Positions 1,649-55,693 of a stretch of DNA of 64,000 bases are shown piece after piece (position 1 is the first letter of the stretch; each line of letters opens with the position of its first letter). This DNA is from a virus. The notes beneath the pieces were generated by a model, which worked only from the letters and a program-made list of their open reading frames with translations, was not told the origin of the DNA and did not search any database. The stretch lies in the IMG/VR virus record IMGVR_UViG_3300037068_000078, positions 13,729 through 77,728 of that record. One strand, written 5' to 3'. The translations under genes were made by a program, and so were the position numbers.

Positions 1649-3748
1649 ATGTCTGAACAAGAGACCCTTCGCCTCGTCGCTGAAGTAGTCGACAAGTACA
1701 GCGCACCGATGAAGCAGATGATGGACCAGCTGAACAAGCTGGGCCAAGCGGCGAAGGGTGTCCACGAGGATGGCAAGAAGCGCACTAACGAGCACACCAA
1801 GGCGTTTCGTGATCTTCACGACCAGCTGAACAAGGTCAAGGATACTACCACCGACGTTCTTCGTCCCGCGTTCAATGCGCTGGGTATTACGGTTCTCTCC
1901 GTTGCAGGCAGCATCGCAGCGGTGAGCGAGGCGGTCAAGAACTTCGGCGAGTACGGGCAGAAGCTGGAGTACGCACACCGCGCCAGCGGCCTGCTCACAT
2001 CCTCCGTGCGGGGCTTGTCCGAGGCGAACGAGCGCTTCGGCATGTCAGCCGAGGACACCATACGCTCGCTGGAGCAGTTCGGCGGGCACATGAACGAGCT
2101 CGCTCGCAAGAACCCGAACTACATAAACGAGTTCAAGAAGTACCCGCGCCTGTGGAACGAGCTAGGCAGCGCGCTGATGAACGGGCATCTCACCCGTCAG
2201 CAGCAGCTGGACAAGGCGATGAACTACGTCTCTACCATCCGAGACGTCGACCAGAAGAAGCGCGTGCTGGCGCTGCTCGGCCTACCCGAGAACTGGGCTT
2301 ATCTCTCCGAGAAAGAGATGGCCGAGATGCGCAAGCGGGCGGAGGACTTCAACAACCGCTTCCCGTTCAGCGCCAAGGCCGCCGAGGATGCCAAGAAGGC
2401 GTGGGACGACTTGATCACCACGTTCCACGGCCTGCGCGATGAGATGGGTGGCGAGTTCGCGCCCGGCTTCTCTAAGGGCCTGAAGGAGTTCAACGAGCTC
2501 ATTAACTCCGAGTCCTTCAAGGAGTTCAAGGGCTACGTTGACGCCGTGGGCAAGTCGCTGAGCGGCTGGAACATCGGCTCATTCAAGTCTGACGCGCAGG
2601 ATCTAAAGGCAATCATGGACGCCATCAGCGCGACCGTGCACGGCGTCGAGGGTATGTGGGCGAAGATCGCCGAGATCTGGAAGCGAGGCTTCGGCAGCGG
2701 CACGGGCACAGGTGCGCCCGGTAGCCAAAGCGACCAAAAGCAGCAGGACAACGTGAAGGAGGGCACTCGCAAGGGTCTCGAGGAGTTCTACAACACGCTC
2801 AAGCAACAAAACAACGACGGCGGCTACACTCCCATGGCGTACCATCCCCCCGGCTCATCCGGCGGCGGAGGCGGGGGGACGCCGAGGTTTGGAAGCGCGG
2901 AGTACCCGAACCTTGGTGCGGGCGCACCGGGTGGCGGCGGTGGTCTCAGCGGTGGCAGTGTTCCGAAGTCCTCGCAAGGAACAGGGAACGGTGCTCTGGG
3001 TCCCGATGCGATGTACTCAATGAACCCTGGTCCGCAGAATGATTCGGCGCTTGCCTCTGATCGTGAGAAGCGGTTTAGGGATGAGGTCACTAGAAATCCC
3101 GGGCTTCTTGACCGCATGGCGCAAATATCGCTCGGCGAGAACAAGGGCAAGAAGGCCAATCAAGAGGTCATCGAGACGATATTCAACCGCGCTTCAGCGC
3201 GCGGCACCTCGCTTGCGCAGGCAATGAAGGAATACACGGGGCGAGGTTCCGATGGTTACTATCCGGGGACCACGTTCTCGGGCGGTGCGCGGGCGATGGG
3301 CAACGCAAAGCTTCGCGCCATGGCAGAGGAGCACATTCGCAAAGCGTGGGGCGGCAGCAACGTCAGCGGATATGCCACGGACAATTCATCGAGTTGGTTG
3401 GCTGAGAAAGAAAAGCGGTCTGGTGCATTCACGTGGCACAACGACGACAGCGCTGAGTCGTTCTTCTCACCGGGAAAGTCTGGGGGTGGGCGAGCCTCTC
3501 GAGGCAGCTATCTCAAGTGGCTGCACGGGCTCGATGGTCAGAGGAAAGACAGCGACGCCGAGCTTCTCTCCAAGGGCATGAAGACCATGGACAACCGCGA
3601 CTTCAAGGGCAACGCCAACGTGACAGTTGACTTCCGCAACATGCCGAAGGGCGTTGCCGTTGCTGGCAAGGCTGATGGCATGTTCAAGCAGGTGACGCTC
3701 AACCGTGGGCGGCAGATGTTCGACAGCGACAAGATGGGTCTCGGCTGA
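1649..3748 (+). CDS. Tape measure protein with possible C-terminal cell-wall hydrolase domain
   Basis: 699 aa; helical N-half starting ETLRLVAEVVDKYSAP, Gly-rich linker, then ISLGEN...VIETIFNR. Confidence 0.85.
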   Translation: MSEQETLRLVAEVVDKYSAPMKQMMDQLNKLGQAAKGVHEDGKKRTNEHTKAFRDLHDQLNKVKDTTTDVLRPAFNALGITVLSVAGSIAAVSEAVKNFGEYGQKLEYAHRASGLLTSSVRGLSEANERFGMSAEDTIRSLEQFGGHMNELARKNPNYINEFKKYPRLWNELGSALMNGHLTRQQQLDKAMNYVSTIRDVDQKKRVLALLGLPENWAYLSEKEMAEMRKRAEDFNNRFPFSAKAAEDAKKAWDDLITTFHGLRDEMGGEFAPGFSKGLKEFNELINSESFKEFKGYVDAVGKSLSGWNIGSFKSDAQDLKAIMDAISATVHGVEGMWAKIAEIWKRGFGSGTGTGAPGSQSDQKQQDNVKEGTRKGLEEFYNTLKQQNNDGGYTPMAYHPPGSSGGGGGGTPRFGSAEYPNLGAGAPGGGGGLSGGSVPKSSQGTGNGALGPDAMYSMNPGPQNDSALASDREKRFRDEVTRNPGLLDRMAQISLGENKGKKANQEVIETIFNRASARGTSLAQAMKEYTGRGSDGYYPGTTFSGGARAMGNAKLRAMAEEHIRKAWGGSNVSGYATDNSSSWLAEKEKRSGAFTWHNDDSAESFFSPGKSGGGRASRGSYLKWLHGLDGQRKDSDAELLSKGMKTMDNRDFKGNANVTVDFRNMPKGVAVAGKADGMFKQVTLNRGRQMFDSDKMGLG

Positions 3749-4269
3749 TGGTGCTCTCATTCTGGCGGCTCAACCTGCAGCCCGCCTCCTTCAATGGTGC
3801 AGTCTTTCACATCGCGGTCAGCTCTCGTCAAGGAGGCAGGCGGCAGGTGGAACATGAGTTTCCCAAGAAGGAGGATCCCTTCGCGGAGGACATGGGCCGC
3901 AGGGCGCGTGGCTTCAACATCCTGGGGTACGTCATCGGTGCAGACTTCGAGCAACAGCGCGATGCGCTGATCGAGCAACTGGAGCTCGAGGGCAATGGTA
4001 CGCTCGTGTTACCCACTTACTCCGAGGACCAGATCGTGGTCTGCGACGTGTACAGCGTAGTGGAGCGGCGCGAGCACGGTGGGTACGCGGAGATAGAGAT
4101 GCGCTTCCTCGAGGCTGGGCAGGATCCATCCACGGTGGCCTCAGTGGACACGCAGGGGGCGGCGAACGCAGCTGCAGACCAAGCGGGCGGGCTTGCCTCG
4201 TCCTCGCTGCAGGGCAATGACTTCAACGGCGCATTCATGAACTCATCGGACATTACACAACTCACATGA
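3748..4269 (+). CDS. DNA circularization protein N-terminal domain (Mu gpN-like)
   Basis: WR..LQPASFNG..F, GGRR..EHEFP, EDMGR, GTLVLP motifs. Confidence 0.85.
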   Translation: MVLSFWRLNLQPASFNGAVFHIAVSSRQGGRRQVEHEFPKKEDPFAEDMGRRARGFNILGYVIGADFEQQRDALIEQLELEGNGTLVLPTYSEDQIVVCDVYSVVERREHGGYAEIEMRFLEAGQDPSTVASVDTQGAANAAADQAGGLASSSLQGNDFNGAFMNSSDITQLT

Positions 4270-17880: not shown

Positions 17881-18549
17881 ATGAAGCCAAGAGTTATCGT
17901 CGTCGGCGCTGATAAGGGTGGCGTTGGCAAGACTACCGTCTCGCGCGTCATGCTCGACTACTTCACGAACGCGCACCTGCAGCCGCGCGCCTTCGACACG
18001 GAGAAGAAGGAAACGGGCGTGCTCAAGCGCTTTCATCCAAGCATCACGGAGATCGTTGACTTCTCCAAGGTCGATGGGCAGATGCGCGTGTTGGACTCGC
18101 TCAAGACGTCACCGCTCACGCTCATCGACTGTAGGGCCAACTTGCTGTTGGACTCGTTGGATACGCTCGCCAACATCGGCTTCCTCGACAAGGTGAAGAA
18201 TGGTGAGATCACCATCCAGACATTCCACGTGCTGGATGGATCCGTGGCCGCGCTCGACGAGGTGGCGGACGCCGCAAAGATCCTCAATAACGAGGGCTAC
18301 TACGTTGTGCGCAACCACATCAATGACCGTGCCTTCTTCAGCTGGAGCGAGACGCGCTCCAAGATTGCTGGCACCGTGGTTGACGTGCCCAAGCTCGATG
18401 AGCGCGCCAGCGAGGCGGTGGACGACATGGGCGTCTCGTTCGAGGAGTTCATTTCCAAGACGGATAGCGACGTGCTGCGCGGCTACGTGAAGCACTGGAA
18501 GCAGAAGGTCTACGCCGTGTTCGACGGCATCGGTCTCAGTAAACAGTAG
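17881..18549 (+). CDS. ParA/MinD/CobQ-family ATPase
   Basis: Deviant Walker A GADKGGVGKTT, AFDTE, TLID. Confidence 0.8.
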   Translation: MKPRVIVVGADKGGVGKTTVSRVMLDYFTNAHLQPRAFDTEKKETGVLKRFHPSITEIVDFSKVDGQMRVLDSLKTSPLTLIDCRANLLLDSLDTLANIGFLDKVKNGEITIQTFHVLDGSVAALDEVADAAKILNNEGYYVVRNHINDRAFFSWSETRSKIAGTVVDVPKLDERASEAVDDMGVSFEEFISKTDSDVLRGYVKHWKQKVYAVFDGIGLSKQ

Positions 18550-33628: not shown

Positions 33629-33935
33629 GTGTAGTTGCTACGCGGCTGACGCCGTGGCTGCAGAGAACTTGAACTACGACGTGGCGTGGGCAGCTGCTCA
33701 CTCCGCTGAGTTAGCGGCGACGTTGAACGGAATATGTAAGGAGGCGTACCCGTACTACGTCAACACCGTAGTCGTCATGCTGCTGCGGAGCGTAGCAATA
33801 CACACCAAGGGCAAGAGGAAGGAGGACGAGCGCTTTTTGGAGATACTGGAGACGCTCGTGGGTGATGTTAAAATGCGCGACGACGTATTGAACGCGCTGC
33901 TGGAGCGCAACAGAGAGGGAAGAACCAATCAATGA
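33621..33935 (+). CDS. Hypothetical protein
   Basis: Coupled ORF before the TS homologue. Confidence 0.5.
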   Translation: MPECSCYAADAVAAENLNYDVAWAAAHSAELAATLNGICKEAYPYYVNTVVVMLLRSVAIHTKGKRKEDERFLEILETLVGDVKMRDDVLNALLERNREGRTNQ

Positions 33936-35011
33936 AAGTCATCAAGGGCCGGAACGTGAATGGGCTTTATGCCGTGGGCCACGACTACTTGACGTCGTAT
34001 GGCGAGGAGGGGACGTCGCGCGCGGGGTCGGTGCTGGTATCACCCAAGCCCGTCACCTCGGTGTACCTGCAGCCGCGCGAGCGCGTGCTGTTCGACGCCG
34101 TGCGCAACGCCAACCCGTTCTTCCACATGATGGAGGGGCTGTGGATGCTGGCAGGACGCAGCGACGCCAAGTTTCTGAACCACTACGTGCGCGACTTCGG
34201 CAAGAATTTTGCGGAGGATGGTCTGTACATTCACGGCGCGTATGGTGACAGGTGGCGGAGCGCATTCGGCTTCGACCAGCTGACTGAGATTGTGGACAAG
34301 CTGCGCAAGAACCCGGACGACCGCCAGTGCGTATTGCAGATGTGGGACTCGCGCCCTGGCGCGCAGCACGACGCGGGATGCGACGACCTGATGGGCGAGT
34401 GGAAGGACCGGCCCTGCAACACGCAGGCGTTCTTCCGCGTGCGCAAGGAGCACACGTTTCGGTTTCGCGGCGGCGAGTCGACCTACGACGACAAGCTCGA
34501 CATGACCATCTGCTGCCGCAGCAACGACATCGTGTGGGGTGCCTACGGCGCGAACGCCGTGCACTTCAGCATGCTGCAGGAGTACATGGCCGGGCGCATC
34601 GGCGTGGATGTCGGCACGCTCTATCAGGTGTCGAACAACTACCACGGTTATACGGCGGTGCTCGACGCGCTGGGCGACCCCATGCTGCAGGAGAGCGATC
34701 TGTACACCAGCGGCGAGGTCCACGCGCTGGACATGGGCACCGACTGGGGCAGGTGGGACGAGGACCTGAAGCACTTCATGAAGTGGCACGACGACATTTT
34801 GTGGGCTGAGGGCCACGTGTCGTTCGGGACGAGCTTCTTCAACGAGTGGTTCACGCAGGTACCGATGCGCGCGGCTATTTCCAATTGGTGTCACCGCCGA
34901 GGCGACAAGGAGAAAGCGCTCGACTTCGCAAGTCGCATCGCCGCAAGCGACTGGCGCACCGCCTGCACGCAGTGGCTTCAGCGCAGGTACGACGGGAGCA
35001 ACGGCAAGTGA
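33932..35011 (+). CDS. Thymidylate synthase homologue, probable dUMP hydroxymethylase
   Basis: NPFF...E.LW.L.G, GAYG.R, RQ.V...W, PCN, RSND..WG..GAN; clustered with 5-HMUDK. Confidence 0.85.
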   Translation: MKVIKGRNVNGLYAVGHDYLTSYGEEGTSRAGSVLVSPKPVTSVYLQPRERVLFDAVRNANPFFHMMEGLWMLAGRSDAKFLNHYVRDFGKNFAEDGLYIHGAYGDRWRSAFGFDQLTEIVDKLRKNPDDRQCVLQMWDSRPGAQHDAGCDDLMGEWKDRPCNTQAFFRVRKEHTFRFRGGESTYDDKLDMTICCRSNDIVWGAYGANAVHFSMLQEYMAGRIGVDVGTLYQVSNNYHGYTAVLDALGDPMLQESDLYTSGEVHALDMGTDWGRWDEDLKHFMKWHDDILWAEGHVSFGTSFFNEWFTQVPMRAAISNWCHRRGDKEKALDFASRIAASDWRTACTQWLQRRYDGSNGK

Positions 35012-47654: not shown

Positions 47655-48341
47655 ATGAGTGATGGAGCAATCATCTTGCTTGCGCTGTTCGCCCTGCCCA
47701 CGGCGATAGCTGTTATGCGTGGGCACCAAAGCGTGCTGGCTATCGCGTTCATCAACGCGTTCGGCTTCGTGCTCTCGCTTTACTTCACGCCGCTGGCGGG
47801 GCTGGCGGGCTGGCTGATTGCTATGGTGTGGGCGCTCGCAGCCGTGCGGCGTCGGCGCAGGCTGAGCGCCCTGCAGCGGTGGGAGGGCAAGCGCGTGGTG
47901 ATCTGGTTCGCGTTGATGATGGTGCTGACCGGGGCCTCTCAAGCGTGGGCGGCAGCACCTGGATATGAACTCGACTGTGACGCCCCTAGCGTCATGATTG
48001 GTGACGATACCCGTGACGACCCGGTAATTGGTGTGCGCATATTCTACACGCCAGATGAACACGCGTGGCGCGTTCTGCACGTGATGTCCACCGGGCTCAT
48101 CGTCTCGCGTGGTGCGCAGTACGGCATCATGGACGCCACCAACGACCATCGCGTGCAGTGGCAGGGCGCGTTGATACGCAAGCCGAGCATCTACATGATC
48201 GGCGAGCTACAGCGCGGCAAGGACGGCGGTGTCTCGTACATGGAGTGGATCTATGACCGCGCTAAGAACAACGCGCTCGTCATGCAGTCCATCGCCAAGT
48301 GCTTCAAGCCGACCCCGCCGCTGCCACGACCTACGATGTGA
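47655..48341 (+). CDS. Superinfection immunity (T4 Imm-like) domain fused to an exported-type domain
   Basis: LPT.IA..R.H....AI...N........GW..A.VWAL, then a further hydrophobic helix ending AWA and a soluble domain. Confidence 0.6.
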   Translation: MSDGAIILLALFALPTAIAVMRGHQSVLAIAFINAFGFVLSLYFTPLAGLAGWLIAMVWALAAVRRRRRLSALQRWEGKRVVIWFALMMVLTGASQAWAAAPGYELDCDAPSVMIGDDTRDDPVIGVRIFYTPDEHAWRVLHVMSTGLIVSRGAQYGIMDATNDHRVQWQGALIRKPSIYMIGELQRGKDGGVSYMEWIYDRAKNNALVMQSIAKCFKPTPPLPRPTM

Positions 48342-48351
48342 GGAACCAGTG

Positions 48352-50004
48352 ATGAGAGAAATGCGGGAGCCGACAGTCACCATCAATGGCAAGGAGTTAA
48401 CCAGCGCGCAGGCACTAACACTGCGCGTTGGCCTCAACATCTTTCTCATGGGCCTCAAGGAGCTTCAGCTCGGTGGCACGCTCGAGAACGGGTATCGTCA
48501 ACGTGGCATCGAGGTGCTCACGATGATGCTCGAGACACCGCAGGAGTTGGGCAGCCATGGATGAAGTATTCCAGTGGGTCATCTTCGCGTTGCTGGTGCT
48601 GTTCGTCGTGAGCGCGGTAGGCGTGCACGTTGCACAGCGGATCAAGCGCAGGCAGCCCTGATGCCCAAGTTCCACGTGGGGCAGGAGGTCGTCTGCATCA
48701 ACGACGACTTCTCTAAGATGCTCAAGATGTACAGCCTGCTCAACCTGCCCGGCTTCAACCTGCCGCGCAGGGGCAACCTGTACGTGGTGCGCGACTACGT
48801 GATACACGGCAAGTTCCCGGCGATCGTGGTCATGGAGTTGCACAACCCCATCATCCCGTACATGGATGACATCTGGCGTGAGGCTGGCTTCTGGGATGAG
48901 CGCTTCGAGCCGCGCACCAAGCGCACAGTAAACGAGATGCTAACCAAGGCGCTGAGCGCGCCGTGGCAAGATCCATACTTCGACGAAGCCGATCCAATGG
49001 TGGATCCGGTGCATCAAGGAGAAGATGCGTGACAAAAATGTACAAGGTAGTATTCATCGGCAACGAGCGGCAGCGCGATGATTTCGTGGAGCTATTCGGT
49101 GATGAGATCAAGCGCTACACAATTGAGCGCGTGGACGACGGCCCCATCGACAGTAGCAAGCCCATCAAGATCGTGAACGGTCACGCGACTGCAATGCCCC
49201 CGGCCAAGCGGCGCAAGAAGCGCAGGATCTCGTCGTCGCAGAACGGCCCGGCCCGCGACCAGTTGCTCCGCTACATGCAGAACAACAGCGGCAGCATCAC
49301 CAGTGCGGCAGCTGGCAAGTTCATGTCCAGGATCAACCTGAAGCCGAACGGCGGTAGCGCGCGGCTGGCTGATCTCTGCCTCCTGGGGATGGTGGAATAC
49401 AACGAGCAGTCCGAGGTCTATACTCTGACGGAGCTCGGCAAGACCACGGAGAAGACCCCGAACCCGGTGTACAAGAGGGCAGGGCAATGACCAAGCAACT
49501 CCCCAACCCGTTCGACCCCACAGACGAAGGCCGCTTCGAGTTTGACGCGGTGGCGTTCGTCCAGGCGCTTGAGGAGGCGCTCGTCATCGAGACGGAGCTC
49601 ATGGCACTGCGCGGCCTGCGCACTAGCAAGTCCGCACAGCTGGACGCCATCGAGGACCTCCGGAGGCTGGCCTCGTGACCAGCACCACACAGTGGAGGAA
49701 ACTTGCCGTGGTGGTGGAGATACCAGTGCGCGGCAAGGCCAGCGAGAACGACTTGGTGTACGCCGTGCGAGCGGCCATTAGCGATGCCAAGCTGCACCAG
49801 ACGCTCAAGCTGCGTCGCGTGGTGCAGACTGGCACGACGCAGGTGAAGGCCCTGGGGCGCGTGCTCCAGGGCCGCAACAAGGCCGAGCCCAACGGCGACA
49901 TCAAGGCCATACGGCTCGCACTCAAGGAGATCAGTGTGCGCGTCTCGCGGCTGGAAACAGCAACCAACCCACACAGAGGGAGCCCAGCTGGTGACTTCGA
50001 CTAA
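48352..50004 (+). other. Small hypothetical CDSs (48352-48564, 48661-49032, 49029-49490, 49487-49678, 49675-50004)
   Basis: Coupled ORFs; 49029-49490 ends in a winged-helix-like segment (L..L...G.V......YTLTE.G). Confidence 0.55.
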
Positions 50005-50355
50005 CAAGAAGAAACGCAGGCCGCAGCGGCACGAGCCACCCGTCAACCAAGTGCCACCGTACAACGGCCTGTGCTGCGGCGGCCCGTACGACGGACAGCC
50101 GATGGCATCCTTACGCCTGCGCAAGCCGATGACGCTTGCGGTGCTGGGGCGCATAGTGGGGTCCGGCGAGTACGTGCTCACCTGGGGCGTCGTGTGGCTG
50201 TGGAAGAAGACGCCATGACCACGCGCACAACCATCTTCACCATATTAGCCGTCGCCGCACTGTTGTTCGTGCTCTCCCGCGTGGGCAAGCACGAGCACAG
50301 GTGCATCACCGTCGCCGACGCCATGCAGGTGGCTGGCAACTGCAGGAGAAATTGA

Positions 50356-50805
50356 ATGCCGACCTTCGACTACGTCTTCAAGCACGAGTCTCCCTTCGTC
50401 AAGAACACGATGGGTGATACGCCACCGGACGGCAAGCTCTACGGCGCGGTGCTGCCCGGCAACTTGATGCCGTGGATGTGGATCACGCCGAATACGTGGC
50501 TCCCTCCGGGATACATCAATGCGCCGCGCTACCATCTGTCTGAGTCCGTCAAGTACGTGAACCACGAGGAGTTCTGGGGGCAGGTGCAAAACTCCCAGAA
50601 GTACAAGCTCGCTCCCCCGCCTACCGGGGGGCACATGGAGTGGTGGGACAGGCAGCATGCGTACGGGCGCTATCTGCAGCGGTGCGCGGCGTATCGCTAC
50701 GAGCCGAGAGACTATCAAGCGTGGGTCGCGCGTGGCAGGCACGACGACCCGAGAGACGGGGACCACGTCGCCGTGTTAACAGCAAGAGGAGGAGCGAGAA
50801 CATAA
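50356..50805 (+). CDS. Hypothetical protein directly upstream of array 1
   Basis: AGGAG RBS; 149 aa, aromatic-rich. Confidence 0.65.
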   Translation: MPTFDYVFKHESPFVKNTMGDTPPDGKLYGAVLPGNLMPWMWITPNTWLPPGYINAPRYHLSESVKYVNHEEFWGQVQNSQKYKLAPPPTGGHMEWWDRQHAYGRYLQRCAAYRYEPRDYQAWVARGRHDDPRDGDHVAVLTARGGART

Positions 50806-50807
50806 AG

Positions 50808-51472
50808 AAGTGAGCAGGGGTCGCAGGAGTTGTACCGTACCTGCCAAGCGAGCAGTTCACGTTGAGCGTAGCGTATTGGAGGAGCGAGACCGAGTAATAT
50901 AAGCGTACCGCATTTCAGGAGTGAGCCGTTTTGTCCCGCGAGTACCGATGGATGCGAGCGAGCCGGGTTACAAGGAGCGTGCCGTATAGTAGGAGTGAGA
51001 CGCACGAAGGTGAGCGTGCCGTATGGGATGAGCGAACCAAATGAGTGGAGAGTACCGGAACAGCTAGAGTGAGCAGTCATAAACGACCGTATCGGAAAGC
51101 GAGAGCGAGCCGTTTTGTTAGAGCGTGCCGGAAAGCAAGAGCGAGCCGTGCTGTTAGAGCGTACCGTATTGCTAGAGTGAGACCATGGACATGAGTGTAG
51201 CGTAAATACGGAGCGAGCCGCCTTCTAAGAGTGTACCGATCAAGAAAAGCGAGCCGTATTGTACTGATCGTACCGAATAGATGGAGTGAGACGTAAAACT
51301 TGAGAGTACCGTTAATGTGGAGCGAGCCGCATTAAGTAGAGCGTACCGTCGATAATGTGCGAACCTAACTGCAGAGAGCGTACCGAGATTACAGAGTGAA
51401 CCCGTTAACGAAGGGAGCGTACCGAAATCACAGAGTGAACCCGTTGCATGAGCGTACCGAAATCGATGAGTG
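50808..51472 (+). ncRNA. TIGR-like dual-repeat guide RNA array 1 (about 18 units)
   Basis: Alternating GAGCGAGCCG-like and GAGCGTACCG-like 10-mers separated by mostly 8-9 nt variable spacers; period 36-37 nt. Confidence 0.9.
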
Positions 51473-51516
51473 CCTTACCAAACTGAGCAGACGACCCAAC
51501 AGAGGGAAATGAAAAC

Positions 51517-52377
51517 ATGAAACGTGCAGAGACCGTGATACCGCGCGCATCCAAGGAGATGGTGCTCGAGGCCGCGAACCTTACCAACCCGGAGGCGAGG
51601 TTCCTCGTCTCGGACTACTACGCAACGCAGGACATGCGCAAGCGAGCGGACATGCAGCTGCGACATCGCGGCGAGCAGACCGACCCGCAGCGCGTCAGCG
51701 CGCTGGGCTACATGGGCGACGGCTTCGCGCTCATGGAGGCACAGATCCAGCGCATGCTCACGAAGTATGCCGAGGGGACACCAGTGGGTCGCTGGATGAT
51801 GTCGCAGTACGGCGTGGGGCCGGTCATCGCAGCTGGGATGCTGGCGCACCTGGACGTCGAGGACAAGCCCACGGCGGGCCACTTCTGGCGGTTCAGCGGG
51901 CTGGATCCCACGTGCAAGTGGGAGAAGGGCCAGAAGCGCCCGTACAACCCGGATATGAAGCAGCTGTGCTACCACTTCGGTGAGTGCGCCAAGCGCACCA
52001 GCGGCAGCGAGAACAGCTTCTACGGTCGCTTCTACCGCGAGCGCAAGGCCAAGTTGATCGAGCGCAACGAGGCGGGCCACTACGCCGAGCGGGCGAAGAC
52101 GTTCTTCACTCATTCTGCAGAGTGGAAGGCGATCCTCGCGACCGGCAAGCTGCCACCCGGCAACCTGGACAGGCAGGCGTGCAACATCACGTCGAAGATC
52201 TTCCTCTCGCACCTGCACGCGATCATGTACTGGCACAAGTACGGCGTGGCACCACCCAAGCCGTTCGCGATCGCCGTGCTGGGCCACGCGCACGAAGTCA
52301 AGATACCGATGGCCGACGACCACTTCCCGGGGTTCAGTAGCGCGTACTACGGGGCAAGGCCGGAGGGCATCGTCTAG
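51517..52377 (+). CDS. TasA-like Nop-domain (IS110-related) RNA-guided DNA-binding protein, no nuclease domain
   Basis: Helical N-terminus then GVGPVIAAGML...FWRFSGL (IS110/Nop-like); no RuvC DEDD or HNH region; flanked by dual-repeat arrays. Confidence 0.85.
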   Translation: MKRAETVIPRASKEMVLEAANLTNPEARFLVSDYYATQDMRKRADMQLRHRGEQTDPQRVSALGYMGDGFALMEAQIQRMLTKYAEGTPVGRWMMSQYGVGPVIAAGMLAHLDVEDKPTAGHFWRFSGLDPTCKWEKGQKRPYNPDMKQLCYHFGECAKRTSGSENSFYGRFYRERKAKLIERNEAGHYAERAKTFFTHSAEWKAILATGKLPPGNLDRQACNITSKIFLSHLHAIMYWHKYGVAPPKPFAIAVLGHAHEVKIPMADDHFPGFSSAYYGARPEGIV

Positions 52378-53036
52378 AGACGGTCACGGTCCGAGAGTAT
52401 CGACCAACTGGATCGAGCCGTACGTGGAAGTGTACCGAGGTTACCGAGCGAGCCTGCTATGCAGCGAGTACCGTGATCGCTAAGCGAGACGTGCAAGGAG
52501 CGTACCGAAATAAGTGAGCGAGCCTTAATTGGGCGAGTGTACCTTTGCTCAGGAGCGAGACGCATCACGTGAGAGTACCGTCCTACTTAGGATCGAACCG
52601 TGTAAAATGAGAGAACTGCTTCCCTAGAGTGAGCCCGCTCATTACGAGAGTACCTAGATGAATGAGCGAGACGCTGGTTACAAGCGTACCGTAAGGATAA
52701 GCGAGCCGTTGTGATAGAGAGTACAAAATTGCAGGAGCGAGCCGCTGTGCCGGAGAGTACGATAAATCAGGAGCGAGACGTTGGGATCTACAGTATCGCA
52801 ATAGAATGATCGAGCCGCCTTGGGAGAGCGTGCCGTATGGGATATGAGTGAGGCGTTTGTCTGGAGTGTGTACCGAGAGATATAAGCGAGCCGTGCGAAC
52901 GGCAAGAGTACCGTACCCCGTGTGCGAGACGATTACTGCAGAGTGTACCGCAATTTGGAAGCGAGACGAGTTTTGCGATAGTATCGGAACCCCACAGCGA
53001 ACCGAAGTGTCGAGAGAGTACCGACCAAGCAAAGTG
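52373..53036 (+). ncRNA. TIGR-like dual-repeat guide RNA array 2 (about 18 units)
   Basis: Same two alternating repeats, period and orientation as array 1. Confidence 0.9.
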
Positions 53037-53057
53037 CAACAAAGAGGAGAGACAGAT

Positions 53058-53417
53058 TTGAAGATAACAGAAGCAACTGACAAGCGGGCCATCGACACGT
53101 ACGAGCGCGGGCTGGCGTGCTGGCACATACTGGGGACAGCCGACGGCATCATACTCGTATTCCGCTCACCCAACACGCCAGCTGAGGCGAGTCCACCAAC
53201 GGGCTTCAACACTTACTGCCACGCGTTCAATGACATCCACGAGGCCGAGGTGTTCGTGCGGCAAGCGGTGGTCAAGGAGGTGGCGCGCGACGTGTGGGCT
53301 GCGGCCTACGAGCACTTCAAGGTGCCGATAGAAGCGATCAAGCCCGCACCGCGTGGTGATGCACCCGCAACGCGTGTTGAGGCACCCGCACCGCCGGAAT
53401 CTCTCCGCCGGATGTAG
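53058..53417 (+). CDS. Hypothetical protein directly downstream of array 2
   Basis: GAGGAG RBS then TTG start. Confidence 0.55.
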   Translation: MKITEATDKRAIDTYERGLACWHILGTADGIILVFRSPNTPAEASPPTGFNTYCHAFNDIHEAEVFVRQAVVKEVARDVWAAAYEHFKVPIEAIKPAPRGDAPATRVEAPAPPESLRRM

Positions 53418-53441
53418 GCTCGCAGCCTCGTGTGATCTCTG

Positions 53442-53523
53442 GGAGGGGTAGTGTAAGGCGCACGGCAGGGTTCGCCCCCAGTCCCTGCAGGTACGGGGTT
53501 CGATCCCCCGTTCCCTCCGCCCA
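53442..53523 (+). ncRNA. tRNA-like cloverleaf with non-canonical anticodon arm
   Basis: Acceptor GGAGGGG/TCCCTCC, D arm GTGT/GCAC, stem GCAGGG/CCCTGC with 12-nt loop, T arm CGGGG-TTCGATC-CCCCG, ends GCCCA. Confidence 0.65.
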
Positions 53524-53652
53524 TTATTCTGGCGCTCGTGTCTCGTGGTATCATTGAGTTTGTTTGCTCAATGAGACCACGGGCCGAGAGGCCAAGGATC
53601 ACACCGGGATGCGATAATGCATCACTCAGAAAGAGGATTGGAAGACTAGCAA

Positions 53653-54291
53653 ATGGCAAGAAACTTAGAGGACCTGAACGTACTGCACTCCGAGATGTTG
53701 GCAACAGCGTGCGATCTCGGTGTGGTGCTGCCCGAGGATCTGAAGTTGGAGTTCCAGACCGTCGAGGTGGGCGAGGCTACGTGCGACAGCCTCGACAAGC
53801 TGATCCGCGACTTTCGTGCGGCGGCGGAAGCTGGTAACACTGAAAATTCGTCTGAAGCGGCGGAGGGCGTCCCGCCGAAGAAGACCAGGAGACCCGCCAA
53901 GAAGAAGGCGGATACGGGGCAACAGCAACCCACAGAGGAGACTACCGTGACCACTGCAACTGCGAAGAAGCCTGCGAAGGCTGCGAAGAAGGCCAAGGCC
54001 GCGCCGTCGAAGAAGACCGCCAAGAAGGCCGTGGCGAAGAAGGCCGCTACCCAAAAGGCGCGCGGGGGCGGGGGTGCTGCGACGAGCGGGCGCATCACCA
54101 ACGAGACCAAGATCAAGGTCATCAGCAAGGAGAACCCGTTCACCGAGGGCACCACGCGCGGCAAGATGGCCGCCTACGTGCTGGGCCACACCGGCGAGAC
54201 GTTCGGCAAGATGAAGTCGGCGTCGAAGGGGCTGGTCGACGGATGGGTCATCCGCCAGCTGGCTGAGAAGAAGCTGATCTCGATCGAGTAA
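53653..54291 (+). CDS. Paralogue 3: acidic N-terminus, histone H1-like KKA linker, NPF..GT...GLVD.W.IRQ domain
   Basis: AKKPAKAAKKAK repeats; possible in-frame internal GTG start at 53947 after GAGGAG. Confidence 0.8.
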   Translation: MARNLEDLNVLHSEMLATACDLGVVLPEDLKLEFQTVEVGEATCDSLDKLIRDFRAAAEAGNTENSSEAAEGVPPKKTRRPAKKKADTGQQQPTEETTVTTATAKKPAKAAKKAKAAPSKKTAKKAVAKKAATQKARGGGGAATSGRITNETKIKVISKENPFTEGTTRGKMAAYVLGHTGETFGKMKSASKGLVDGWVIRQLAEKKLISIE

Positions 54292-54374
54292 CCATTGCGC
54301 CTACAAGAAACAATCAGAGGAAAACTGGGGGCACTGGCGCAAGCCGGTGCCTCTCTGATATTTGGAGAAGGCAC

Positions 54375-55693
54375 ATGGTTGATATCATGCCAATGAGAGA
54401 CTATGGACTGACGTACGAGGAGGCGGCGCACGGCGTGCAGTCCGCCATCAAGTACGAGATGGACCGCGAGAAGCATGAGATACGCAGCACGCTGAAGCAC
54501 CTGCGCGTCGGCGTGGACATGCGGGCTGCGGACGCCCGCGCCCTGGCTGAGCTACTGATAGCCAAGGGCGTGTTCACCGCCGATGAGTACATCGAGTACA
54601 TGCGGCTCGCCGCCAATGAAGAACTCGCGCGCTACACCGAGCACGTGCGCGAGAAGTACGACCTGCCGATGAACGTGGAGTTCCGGTGATGATACCCATC
54701 AGCTGGAACTATCCCAATCTCCGCATCTCGCACGAGACTGGACACGACTACGGCACGGTCGTGAGACTGAGCGAACTCAGCAACCCATGCAGCATGAGCA
54801 TGATACGGGACGCGTGTCCCGAGCTCGGCGGCTACAGCTGGGGTCAGATAGAGGACCTATGGGTGCGCGTGCAGAAGGCCAAGCATGCCGAGCAGGTGCG
54901 CAGAGGATATTGAACTTGAAAATGGAAATGGGAATACAAAACTGGGAGCAATTGAAATGACAGGTAAGAGACACGCGCGGGTGTTTCACATGCTCGTCGC
55001 GAATGGACACTCGGCGCATAAGGCAGCCGAGATCATCCTAGACGCCAGAAGGGGGTATCGATACGCTCTCGACTGGATCCACTTGGCCCACGATATGGTG
55101 GACCTCGCGAAGTGGATGGAGCGCTACCACGCGCAGCATCGGAGGAGCGCATGACCAAGGTGTACGTGGTCATGGGCAACGACTTCCCGGACGCGGTGTT
55201 CGACAACGAGGTTGATGCGATCATCCACATCAACATATGCAAGGCACAATGTCCGCGTCGGCACATGGCACCTCGCATCTACTGGCGGGTGTACGACTTC
55301 CCGCTGAGGAGCCTCGCGCATGACTGACAACCCAAATGGCTATTGGTGCCGACAGTGTGGATGGAGTAGAGCAGAGGCCGAGCAGCGGTGTAGCTCGACC
55401 TACTGCAGGGAGCGACGCGACGAGGAGGACCTAGAGCGCGAGTGCCCTCGGCCCAATTATCTCTTCGAGTTCTAGGGAGCGCAGCCATGTACGACTACGT
55501 GAGACGCATGTACCGCGTGAACCCGGTGGTGGGCCACTACGTGCAGCACAGCTTCACGCGTCGCGTGGGGCGCATCACGAGCGAGGATGCAAGCTGCGGC
55601 CACTACGTGCAGGTGTTGTTCACGGGCGACAGCTGGGCGCTGCCGTGCCATCCCACCGAGATGGCGTACCTGGGGCCGGTGCCGCCCGACTGA
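54375..55693 (+). other. Small hypothetical CDSs (54375-54689, 54686-54913, 54957-55154, 55151-55327, 55487-55693)
   Basis: RBSs and coupling. Confidence 0.55.

Follow-up and report, generated by a model that had tools for sequence, protein, structure and literature searches.

What is the function of two arrays of short alternating repeats that enclose a single small gene in a phage genome? The question arises in the stretch of DNA studied here, called the window: 64 kb, or bases 13729-77728 of a 77,728-bp virus record in the IMG/VR database. A first reading, made from the sequence alone (the sequence-only reading), had seen there a TIGR-TasA locus, that is, arrays of RNA guides with dual repeats around the gene of a nuclease-less protein with a Nop domain. 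We conclude that the locus is very probably a genuine dual-repeat TIGR-TasA system of a tailed phage of soil or rhizosphere, which would act by guide-directed occupancy of DNA. TIGR-Tas systems were described in 2025, and existing catalogues list about 20,000 tas loci, along with 4,126 arrays of the dual-repeat kind. Positions given below are those of the window, except where a related locus (L numbers) is named.

The evidence for the arrays begins with a count. The degenerate pattern GAGNGWRMCG is matched 36 times in the window, whereas shuffled sequences give 7.4 ± 3.1 matches and none of the 100 shuffles reaches 36; moreover, 28 of the 36 matches lie on the plus strand within the two arrays. 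A chained parse yields 37 repeats upstream of the gene and 36 downstream, in which two types, each 10 nucleotides (nt) long, strictly alternate: type A, or edge, is GAGCGAGCCG, and type B, or loop, is GAG[C/A]GTACCG. Successive repeats start 16 to 21 nt apart, mostly 18 or 19, and the information content is high across exactly 10 positions per repeat and about zero between repeats. Some of these positions are nearly invariant, namely G5, A6 in type A, T6 in type B, and C9.

The spacers have a mode of 8 nt (46 of 70) and a range of 6 to 11. Since spacer B is almost always 8 nt long, and spacer A either 8 or 9 nt, unit lengths are distributed accordingly: 36 nt in 13 of the 36 units, 37 nt in another 13, and some other value in the remaining 10. 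The sequence-only reading had announced two same-strand arrays of about 18 units each, with a period of 36 or 37 nt. The parse returns 18 + 18 units, all on the plus strand, with 26 of the 36 at one of these two lengths, and the example quoted from position 51103 is exact. The consensus given for the repeats stood less well: repeats do occur where it placed them, but they are more degenerate, with a mean of 1.1 to 1.6 mismatches per 10 nt.

Both arrays abut genes, and truncated edge repeats are found at 51466, 52375 and 53032. The upstream array, whose first unit and last two units are degenerate, finishes on an edge repeat truncated at its 3' end, about 40 nt ahead of the tasA start codon; on its other side, one more 10-mer similar to the edge repeat (50792-50801) shares bases with the stop codon of the preceding gene. 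The downstream array likewise ends with a truncated edge repeat, 17 nt ahead of the start of the next gene (TTG at 53058). By the mid-edge processing rule of PMC12045711, the mature guide RNA (tigRNA) of the example unit of Table 1 would run from about 51108 to 51143, mid-edge to mid-edge.

A dual-repeat array is recognised by alternating repeats of 8-12 nt, spacers of about 8-9 nt, a period of about 36 nt, and an adjoining tas gene on the same strand, all of which are present here. The array RNA shows no excess of structure over shuffled sequence (z = 0.06), which fits the dual-repeat type and not the stem-loop type. Two alternating 10-nt repeats with 8-nt spacers, together with a PADLOC search without match, rule out a CRISPR-Cas system, which would call for cas genes and for one kind of repeat only, 25-36 nt long, with spacers about as long. 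Dispersed guide units were sought elsewhere in the genome and none was found, apart from one marginal match with a score of 21, compared to scores of up to 45 in the arrays; this sole unit-like match outside the arrays, at 18307-18352, is probably due to chance.

Table 1. Features of the TIGR-TasA locus, with positions in the window
Feature	Position	Strand	Description or evidence
Upstream TIGR array	50808..51475	+	19 edge + 18 loop repeats = 18 tigRNA units
Example canonical 36-nt unit	51103..51148	+	Edge, 8-nt spacer A, loop, 8-nt spacer B, next edge
Recent tandem unit duplication	51373..51445	+	Two 34-nt copies at 51373 and 51412; 91% identical, 39 nt apart
tasA, 286 aa, solo Nop-domain protein	51517..52377	+	NCBIfam, PDB profile, AF2, Foldseek, VIA-align
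GVGPVIAAG ... FWRFSGL segment (residues 99-128), shared with the IS110 RNA-binding domain	51811..51900	+	Weak Pfam Transposase_20
C-terminal loop F250-x6-H257-x-H259	52264..52293	+	Aligns with the SpTasH pre-tigRNA processing pair Y289/H296
Downstream TIGR array	52375..53041	+	18 units

What does the gene between the arrays encode? The predicted open reading frame (ORF) of 286 amino acids (aa) is there, with GVGPVIAAG at residues 99-107 and FWRFSGL at residues 122-128. The protein matches the NCBIfam model NF052498, "TIGR-Tas system RNA-guided endonuclease" (TIGR_Tas_endo), with an E-value of 1.4e-46 and 159 bits for a cut-off of 100. A phmmer search of PDB sequences finds TasH at 5e-7 and TasR at 4e-4; a profile of 70 sequences finds TasR at 2e-16 and TasH at 2e-13, with IS621 at 0.011. 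An AlphaFold (AF2) model was built on the 70-sequence alignment, a single-sequence model with a predicted local distance difference test score (pLDDT) of 38.8 being set aside. The retained model has a pLDDT of 90.8 and a predicted template modelling score of 0.88, and consists of a coiled-coil hairpin (residues 24-86, with helices at 24-50 and 62-86) and, C-terminal to it, a helical Nop domain at about residues 89-270.

Structural comparison ranks the Tas proteins first. The top ten Foldseek matches are all TasH or TasR, with E-values from 2e-6 to 9e-5 and template modelling scores from 0.54 to 0.68, and IS621 is next; VIA-align gives TasH with Z 19.0 (226 aa, root-mean-square deviation 3.5) and TasR with Z 17.5 (193 residues, deviation 3.0), then ISCro4, of the IS110 family, with Z 12.3, and below it unrelated coiled coils with Z of at most 7.9. 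The claim of a Tas-type Nop-fold protein is thus upheld by NCBIfam, the PDB profile and both structural rankings. Of the comparison with Tas, Nop5 and IS110 that the sequence-only reading had called for, two parts gave clear matches, Tas being best and the IS110 family third; Nop5 and Nop56/58 are outside the top 50 VIA-align rows, which are full of coiled-coil look-alikes. According to the published work, the box C/D snoRNPs to which these last proteins belong share with TIGR systems a coiled-coil dimer with a Nop domain and a two-spacer guide with box C/D-like flanks; they differ in that snoRNPs target RNA and TIGR systems DNA, the latter having neither a fibrillarin or L7Ae partner nor a k-turn.

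No nuclease domain was found in the protein by Pfam, and its alignment with TasH starts at residue 66 of the TasH chain, past the HNH domain; in the window protein, the coiled coil has only about 21 residues ahead of it. This bears out the predicted absence of RuvC and HNH domains, and the protein is therefore a TasA.

The likeness to IS110 raises another explanation, in which tasA would be the remnant of an RNA-guided transposase of that family and the repeats would be unrelated to it. The only Pfam match, at residues 95-132, is indeed to Transposase_20, below threshold (E 0.007, 17.2 bits against a cut-off of 21.3), the NCBIfam IS110 model gives 18.9 bits, and the matching PHROG family, 4285, is labelled "transposase". 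However, TasH and TasR far outscore the IS110-family structures, and arrays are conserved beside the gene in its relatives, which leaves this explanation extremely improbable. As for a complete IS110-family transposase, it is rejected: the 18.9 bits are those of NF033542, whose cut-off is 140, there is no DEDD_Tnp match, and no DEDD or RuvC-like catalytic domain. IS110 and IS621 share with the window protein the RNA-binding Nop-like domain (GxGP...W..F.GL), and supply its third-best structural match, but the window protein has neither a DEDD domain nor transposon ends, and has an array of many guides where these elements have a single bridge RNA.

More than 800 homologues of TasA, of about 285 aa, were found in metagenomes. 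About 40 related loci were compared, taken from contigs of viral and metagenomic origin and from bacterial or metagenome-assembled genomes, and a 36-nt periodicity adjoins the gene in nearly all of them; the bacterial genomes cover many phyla, among them Proteobacteria, Acidobacteria, Firmicutes and Chloroflexota. The closest relative, L008, has a TasA 79% identical to that of the window. In that locus, the 360 nt directly 5' of tasA (3600-3960) are not a TIGR array: they are G/T-rich, with reiterated GGCAKGG-like motifs and 62% guanine plus cytosine (GC). One has to go about 1.7 kb further upstream to reach the second array of L008, at about 1776-2242.

Which of the two repeats is the edge can be settled with the help of a characterised system, SpTIGR-TasH of Salicola phage CGphi29 (Faure et al. 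2025, PMC12045711; PMC13421893; PDB 9w03, 9w04 and 21kl). We located its tasH gene at L030:14395-15324; in the array 3' of it, AAGCGAGCCA alternates with AAGACAACCA, separated by 8-nt spacers, and the last repeat is AAGCGAGCCA, followed by a terminator. Faure et al. (PMC12045711) report that arrays finish on an edge repeat. The GCGAGCC-type repeat, on which the SpTIGR array closes, is consequently the edge, and repeat A of the window is its homologue: GAGCGAGCCG is nearly identical to it. The two systems are alike in being phage-encoded and dual-repeat, with 10-nt repeats and 8-nt spacers, hence a 16-nt guide, and SpTasH is the best structural match of the window TasA. They differ in several respects: SpTasH has an N-terminal HNH domain and cuts DNA, whereas the window TasA has no nuclease, and the proteins are only 24% identical; the loop repeat is AAGACAACCA in SpTIGR and GAGAGTACCG in the window; and in SpTIGR a single array, closed by a terminator, lies downstream of the gene, whereas two arrays flank the gene in the window and no terminator was found.

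Comparing the repeats of related loci reveals how they are constrained. In the window, edge and loop share the ends GAG...CCG (box D and box C), and the terminal 3' base of the two repeats co-varies over the related loci, being G/G or A/A everywhere but in L002, which is mixed. Edge positions 4 and 7 are C-G in the window and in most relatives, and T-A in five loci, with edges GAATGAAGCG in L009 and GATTGAAACA or similar in L040, L051, L055 and L056, while loop repeats keep A.A at these positions; within the window alone, the 4/7 covariation is not significant. The same pattern of an edge pair and a loop A.A was reported by Faure et al. (PMC12045711). In L009 and L010 (about 1428-2224; 75% TasA identity), the edge GAATGAAGCG differs from that of the window and the loop GAGAGTACCG is the same. 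The repeat pair of L005, L006 and L011 is identical to the window's, so the repeat variant is not new, contrary to a suggestion of the sequence-only reading.

These comparisons bear on the idea that the repeats act as DNA, being iterated sites, such as iterons or a centromere, for an adjacent DNA-binding protein. Repeats of 10 nt spaced by 18 nt do look iteron-like. On the other hand, the edge has a homologue in SpTIGR, a system in which the array transcripts undergo processing and are bound in the form of RNA (PMC12045711, PMC13421893), the strand polarity of the arrays strictly matches that of the gene in all relatives, and edge positions 4 and 7 change in a compensatory manner, a signature of RNA pairing. 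We thus consider a role as DNA sites very improbable.

Assuming that the arrays do encode guides, how might the system work? The arrays would be co-transcribed with tasA on a long rightward phage transcript, since no promoter or terminator signal was found to interrupt this stretch; a terminator-like hairpin first occurs at 54327. A TasA dimer would bind each unit through the shared ends of edge and loop, and the precursor would be cut in mid-edge, giving RNAs of about 36 nt. The two spacers would then pair with opposite DNA strands, spacer A with one and spacer B with the neighbouring stretch of the other. With no nuclease in the protein, the outcome would be occupancy of the site, by which transcription or replication would be blocked at as many as 36 places in the host or in competing elements; the phage itself would not be a target.

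Two groups of known TasA proteins are relevant to this proposal. The first is FpTIGR-TasA of Flavonifractor plautii, compared here by its description in PMC12045711: it resembles the window in having a solo Nop-domain Tas and a dual-repeat array, and 36-nt tigRNAs co-purify with its TasA, which binds them, but its spacers are 9 nt long (18 variable nt) when those of the window are mostly 8 nt. The second consists of the stem-loop proteins MbTasA, PlTasA and BlTasA (bioRxiv 10.64898/2026.09.09.750476 and 10.64898/2026.08.11.744272), nuclease-free like the window TasA, for which guide-dependent DNA binding and reversible repression of transcription are experimental results (bioRxiv 10.64898/2026.09.09.750476 for the repression); the mechanism proposed for the window is the same. 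We infer that the window TasA would bind DNA without cleaving it, in agreement with this published work. Stem-loop systems have hairpin-framed guides and no C-terminal processing loop, in contrast to the window, with its plain dual repeats and a loop in which the histidine is kept.

Several observations weigh against guide-directed occupancy. No sigma-70-like promoter was found before or within either array, and no terminator after the downstream one. No natural target of the guides was found, the search having covered the phage's own genome; with guides of 16 nt, many chance matches arise in large collections, a limitation also reported by the field. Repression has been shown for the stem-loop type only, dual-repeat TasA having been shown to bind tigRNAs only (PMC12045711). 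Finally, the repeats are degenerate, only 13 units are exactly 36 nt long, and a putative processing residue is replaced: in the alignment with SpTasH, whose processing pair Y289/H296 is described in PMC13421893, H257 aligns with H296, keeping the histidine, and F250 aligns with Y289, a change from Tyr to Phe. Degenerate repeats and few units of exact length imply that some units may be non-functional.

These last points invite the conjecture that the system is decaying: the protein may fold, but many or most units would have drifted too far for processing or loading, and the arrays would be largely relics. Mean mismatches per 10 nt are 1.1-1.6 in the window arrays against 0-0.6 in L005 and L011, about 34% of the spacers are not 8 nt long against 3-24% in relatives, and only 10 of the 36 units pass a lenient canonical filter. 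However, L008 is equally degenerate (0.9-1.6), yet its array exceeds 2 kb. Moreover, the tasA ORF is intact, keeping 22 of 22 invariant and nearly all near-invariant residues of the family, and the near invariance of G5, A6/T6 and C9 indicates continuing selection on the repeats. The replaced tyrosine has its own explanation: at the position of Y289, 58 of the 70 family members have Phe and 12 have Tyr, so that F250, being the clade majority, is not a lesion, and the Trp found there in TaTasR indicates that the processing Tyr is not universal. H257 and H259 are kept in 69 and 68 of the 70 sequences, and processing by a His/His site (F250, H257, H259) instead of a Tyr/His one is possible. We therefore regard decay as distinctly improbable.

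Do the guides match the phage that carries them? Self-targets were sought over the whole 77.7-kb genome in either spacer register and either strand configuration, allowing gaps of 0 to 2, and no exact guide match was found. There is one match with at most one mismatch, against 0.5 in a null of shuffled spacer pairings, and 17 with two mismatches, against 11.7 ± 8.2: these counts are no different from those of shuffled pairings. The window also contains a thymidylate-synthase-like gene at 33932-35011 (PHROG 5131, E 1.6e-99); if the thymidines of the phage were modified, RNA-DNA pairing on its own genome could be affected.

The TasA ribonucleoprotein could conceivably do more than block its sites, by recruiting a nuclease or other effector in trans, or by bending DNA in a way that aids phage integration, partition or replication control. 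Such possibilities, including a link to ParB, were raised by Faure et al. (PMC12045711), and the genes flanking the locus (50356-50805, 53058-53417 and 53653-54291) have no recognisable function. However, no ParB, integrase or nuclease gene is found among the genes next to the locus, and, as no guide matches the phage's own genome, roles directed at the phage itself, in partition or at an origin for instance, are disfavoured. The neighbourhood in L008 points the same way: L008 keeps homologues of three neighbour genes, but its tasA module is on the opposite side of the 50356 homologue, and no accessory gene stays directly adjacent to tasA. A role beyond blocking is, in our view, unlikely, and site occupancy remains the reading that we prefer.

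Two other genes of the vicinity deserve mention. The one at 53653-54291, two genes past the downstream array, encodes a protein of 212 aa whose tail, rich in Lys, Ala and Pro, is similar to histone H1 or to a nucleoid protein, and has a homologue in L008 with 45% identity; its coding repeats produce a false 36-nt periodicity at about 53880-54090, and draw many unrelated metagenome contigs. The other, at 47655-48341, about 2.5 kb upstream of the first array, encodes a predicted membrane protein of 228 aa, with a sub-threshold match to Pfam PF14373, superinfection immunity (23.9 bits against 27.9), and the PHROG label "immunity to superinfection".

Is the locus really that of a phage, and is it new? 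The record is rated complete by CheckV, and its PHROG matches include baseplate hub and wedge, primase, helicase, DNA polymerase and thymidylate synthase, which identify a tailed phage; a phage origin, as first proposed, is therefore secure. The DNA comes from a rhizosphere metagenome, and identical short contigs, at low depth, were found for window 49500-54500 in a second rhizosphere metagenome, of another study and year, so that the phage is not limited to one sample; no array variants were seen among the contigs of these two metagenomes. A megablast search of the locus against GenBank phages found no match, and tblastn found a single one, Microcystis phage Mvi-JY20, at 22% identity. Rfam has no match to the locus, nor PADLOC to the TasA protein. 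The locus establishes no new principle, and an NCBI annotation model already names its TasA protein. Its value is that of a clean natural example, in a phage genome that is complete by estimate and with the 36 guides all located in two arrays around tasA.

The spacers themselves carry information. Their GC content is 39% in a phage at 61%, the deficit being concentrated in the first 3-4 bases past each repeat, and the spacers of relatives lean the same way, though less strongly. No spacers are shared between the window and L005, L008 or L011; spacer content thus turns over much faster than the protein. The arrays bear traces of growth by unit duplication and divergence. Besides the recent tandem duplication of Table 1, a spacer B family, with AAATCACA, AAATCGAT, AAATAAGT and AGATTACA, has members in both arrays, and an 18-nt string of loop plus spacer is common to 51012 and 52826. 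In the upstream array, neighbouring units also resemble each other in their spacers of the same type beyond what random pairs do, with 4 close pairs against 0.8 expected (p = 0.003); L008 and the downstream array show this effect less strongly.

It is tempting to put these two properties together, although the conjecture is a doubtful one: guides rich in A and T may silence AT-rich DNA, such as promoters or acquired islands, in a high-GC host or in rival elements, and the arrays may be renewed, with no adaptation machinery, by tandem duplication followed by point mutation. What the locus means for the TIGR family can be stated for each of its features. The Phe that stands for a catalytic Tyr bears on how dual-repeat TasA processes its guides; AT-biased guides that spare their own phage bear on the natural targets of TasA; and duplication traces, together with the absence of spacers in common with relatives at 62-79% protein identity, bear on how spacers are gained. 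If both the silencing of AT-rich DNA and renewal by duplication were true, this complete phage genome would inform both the natural targets of TIGR systems and the origin of their spacers.

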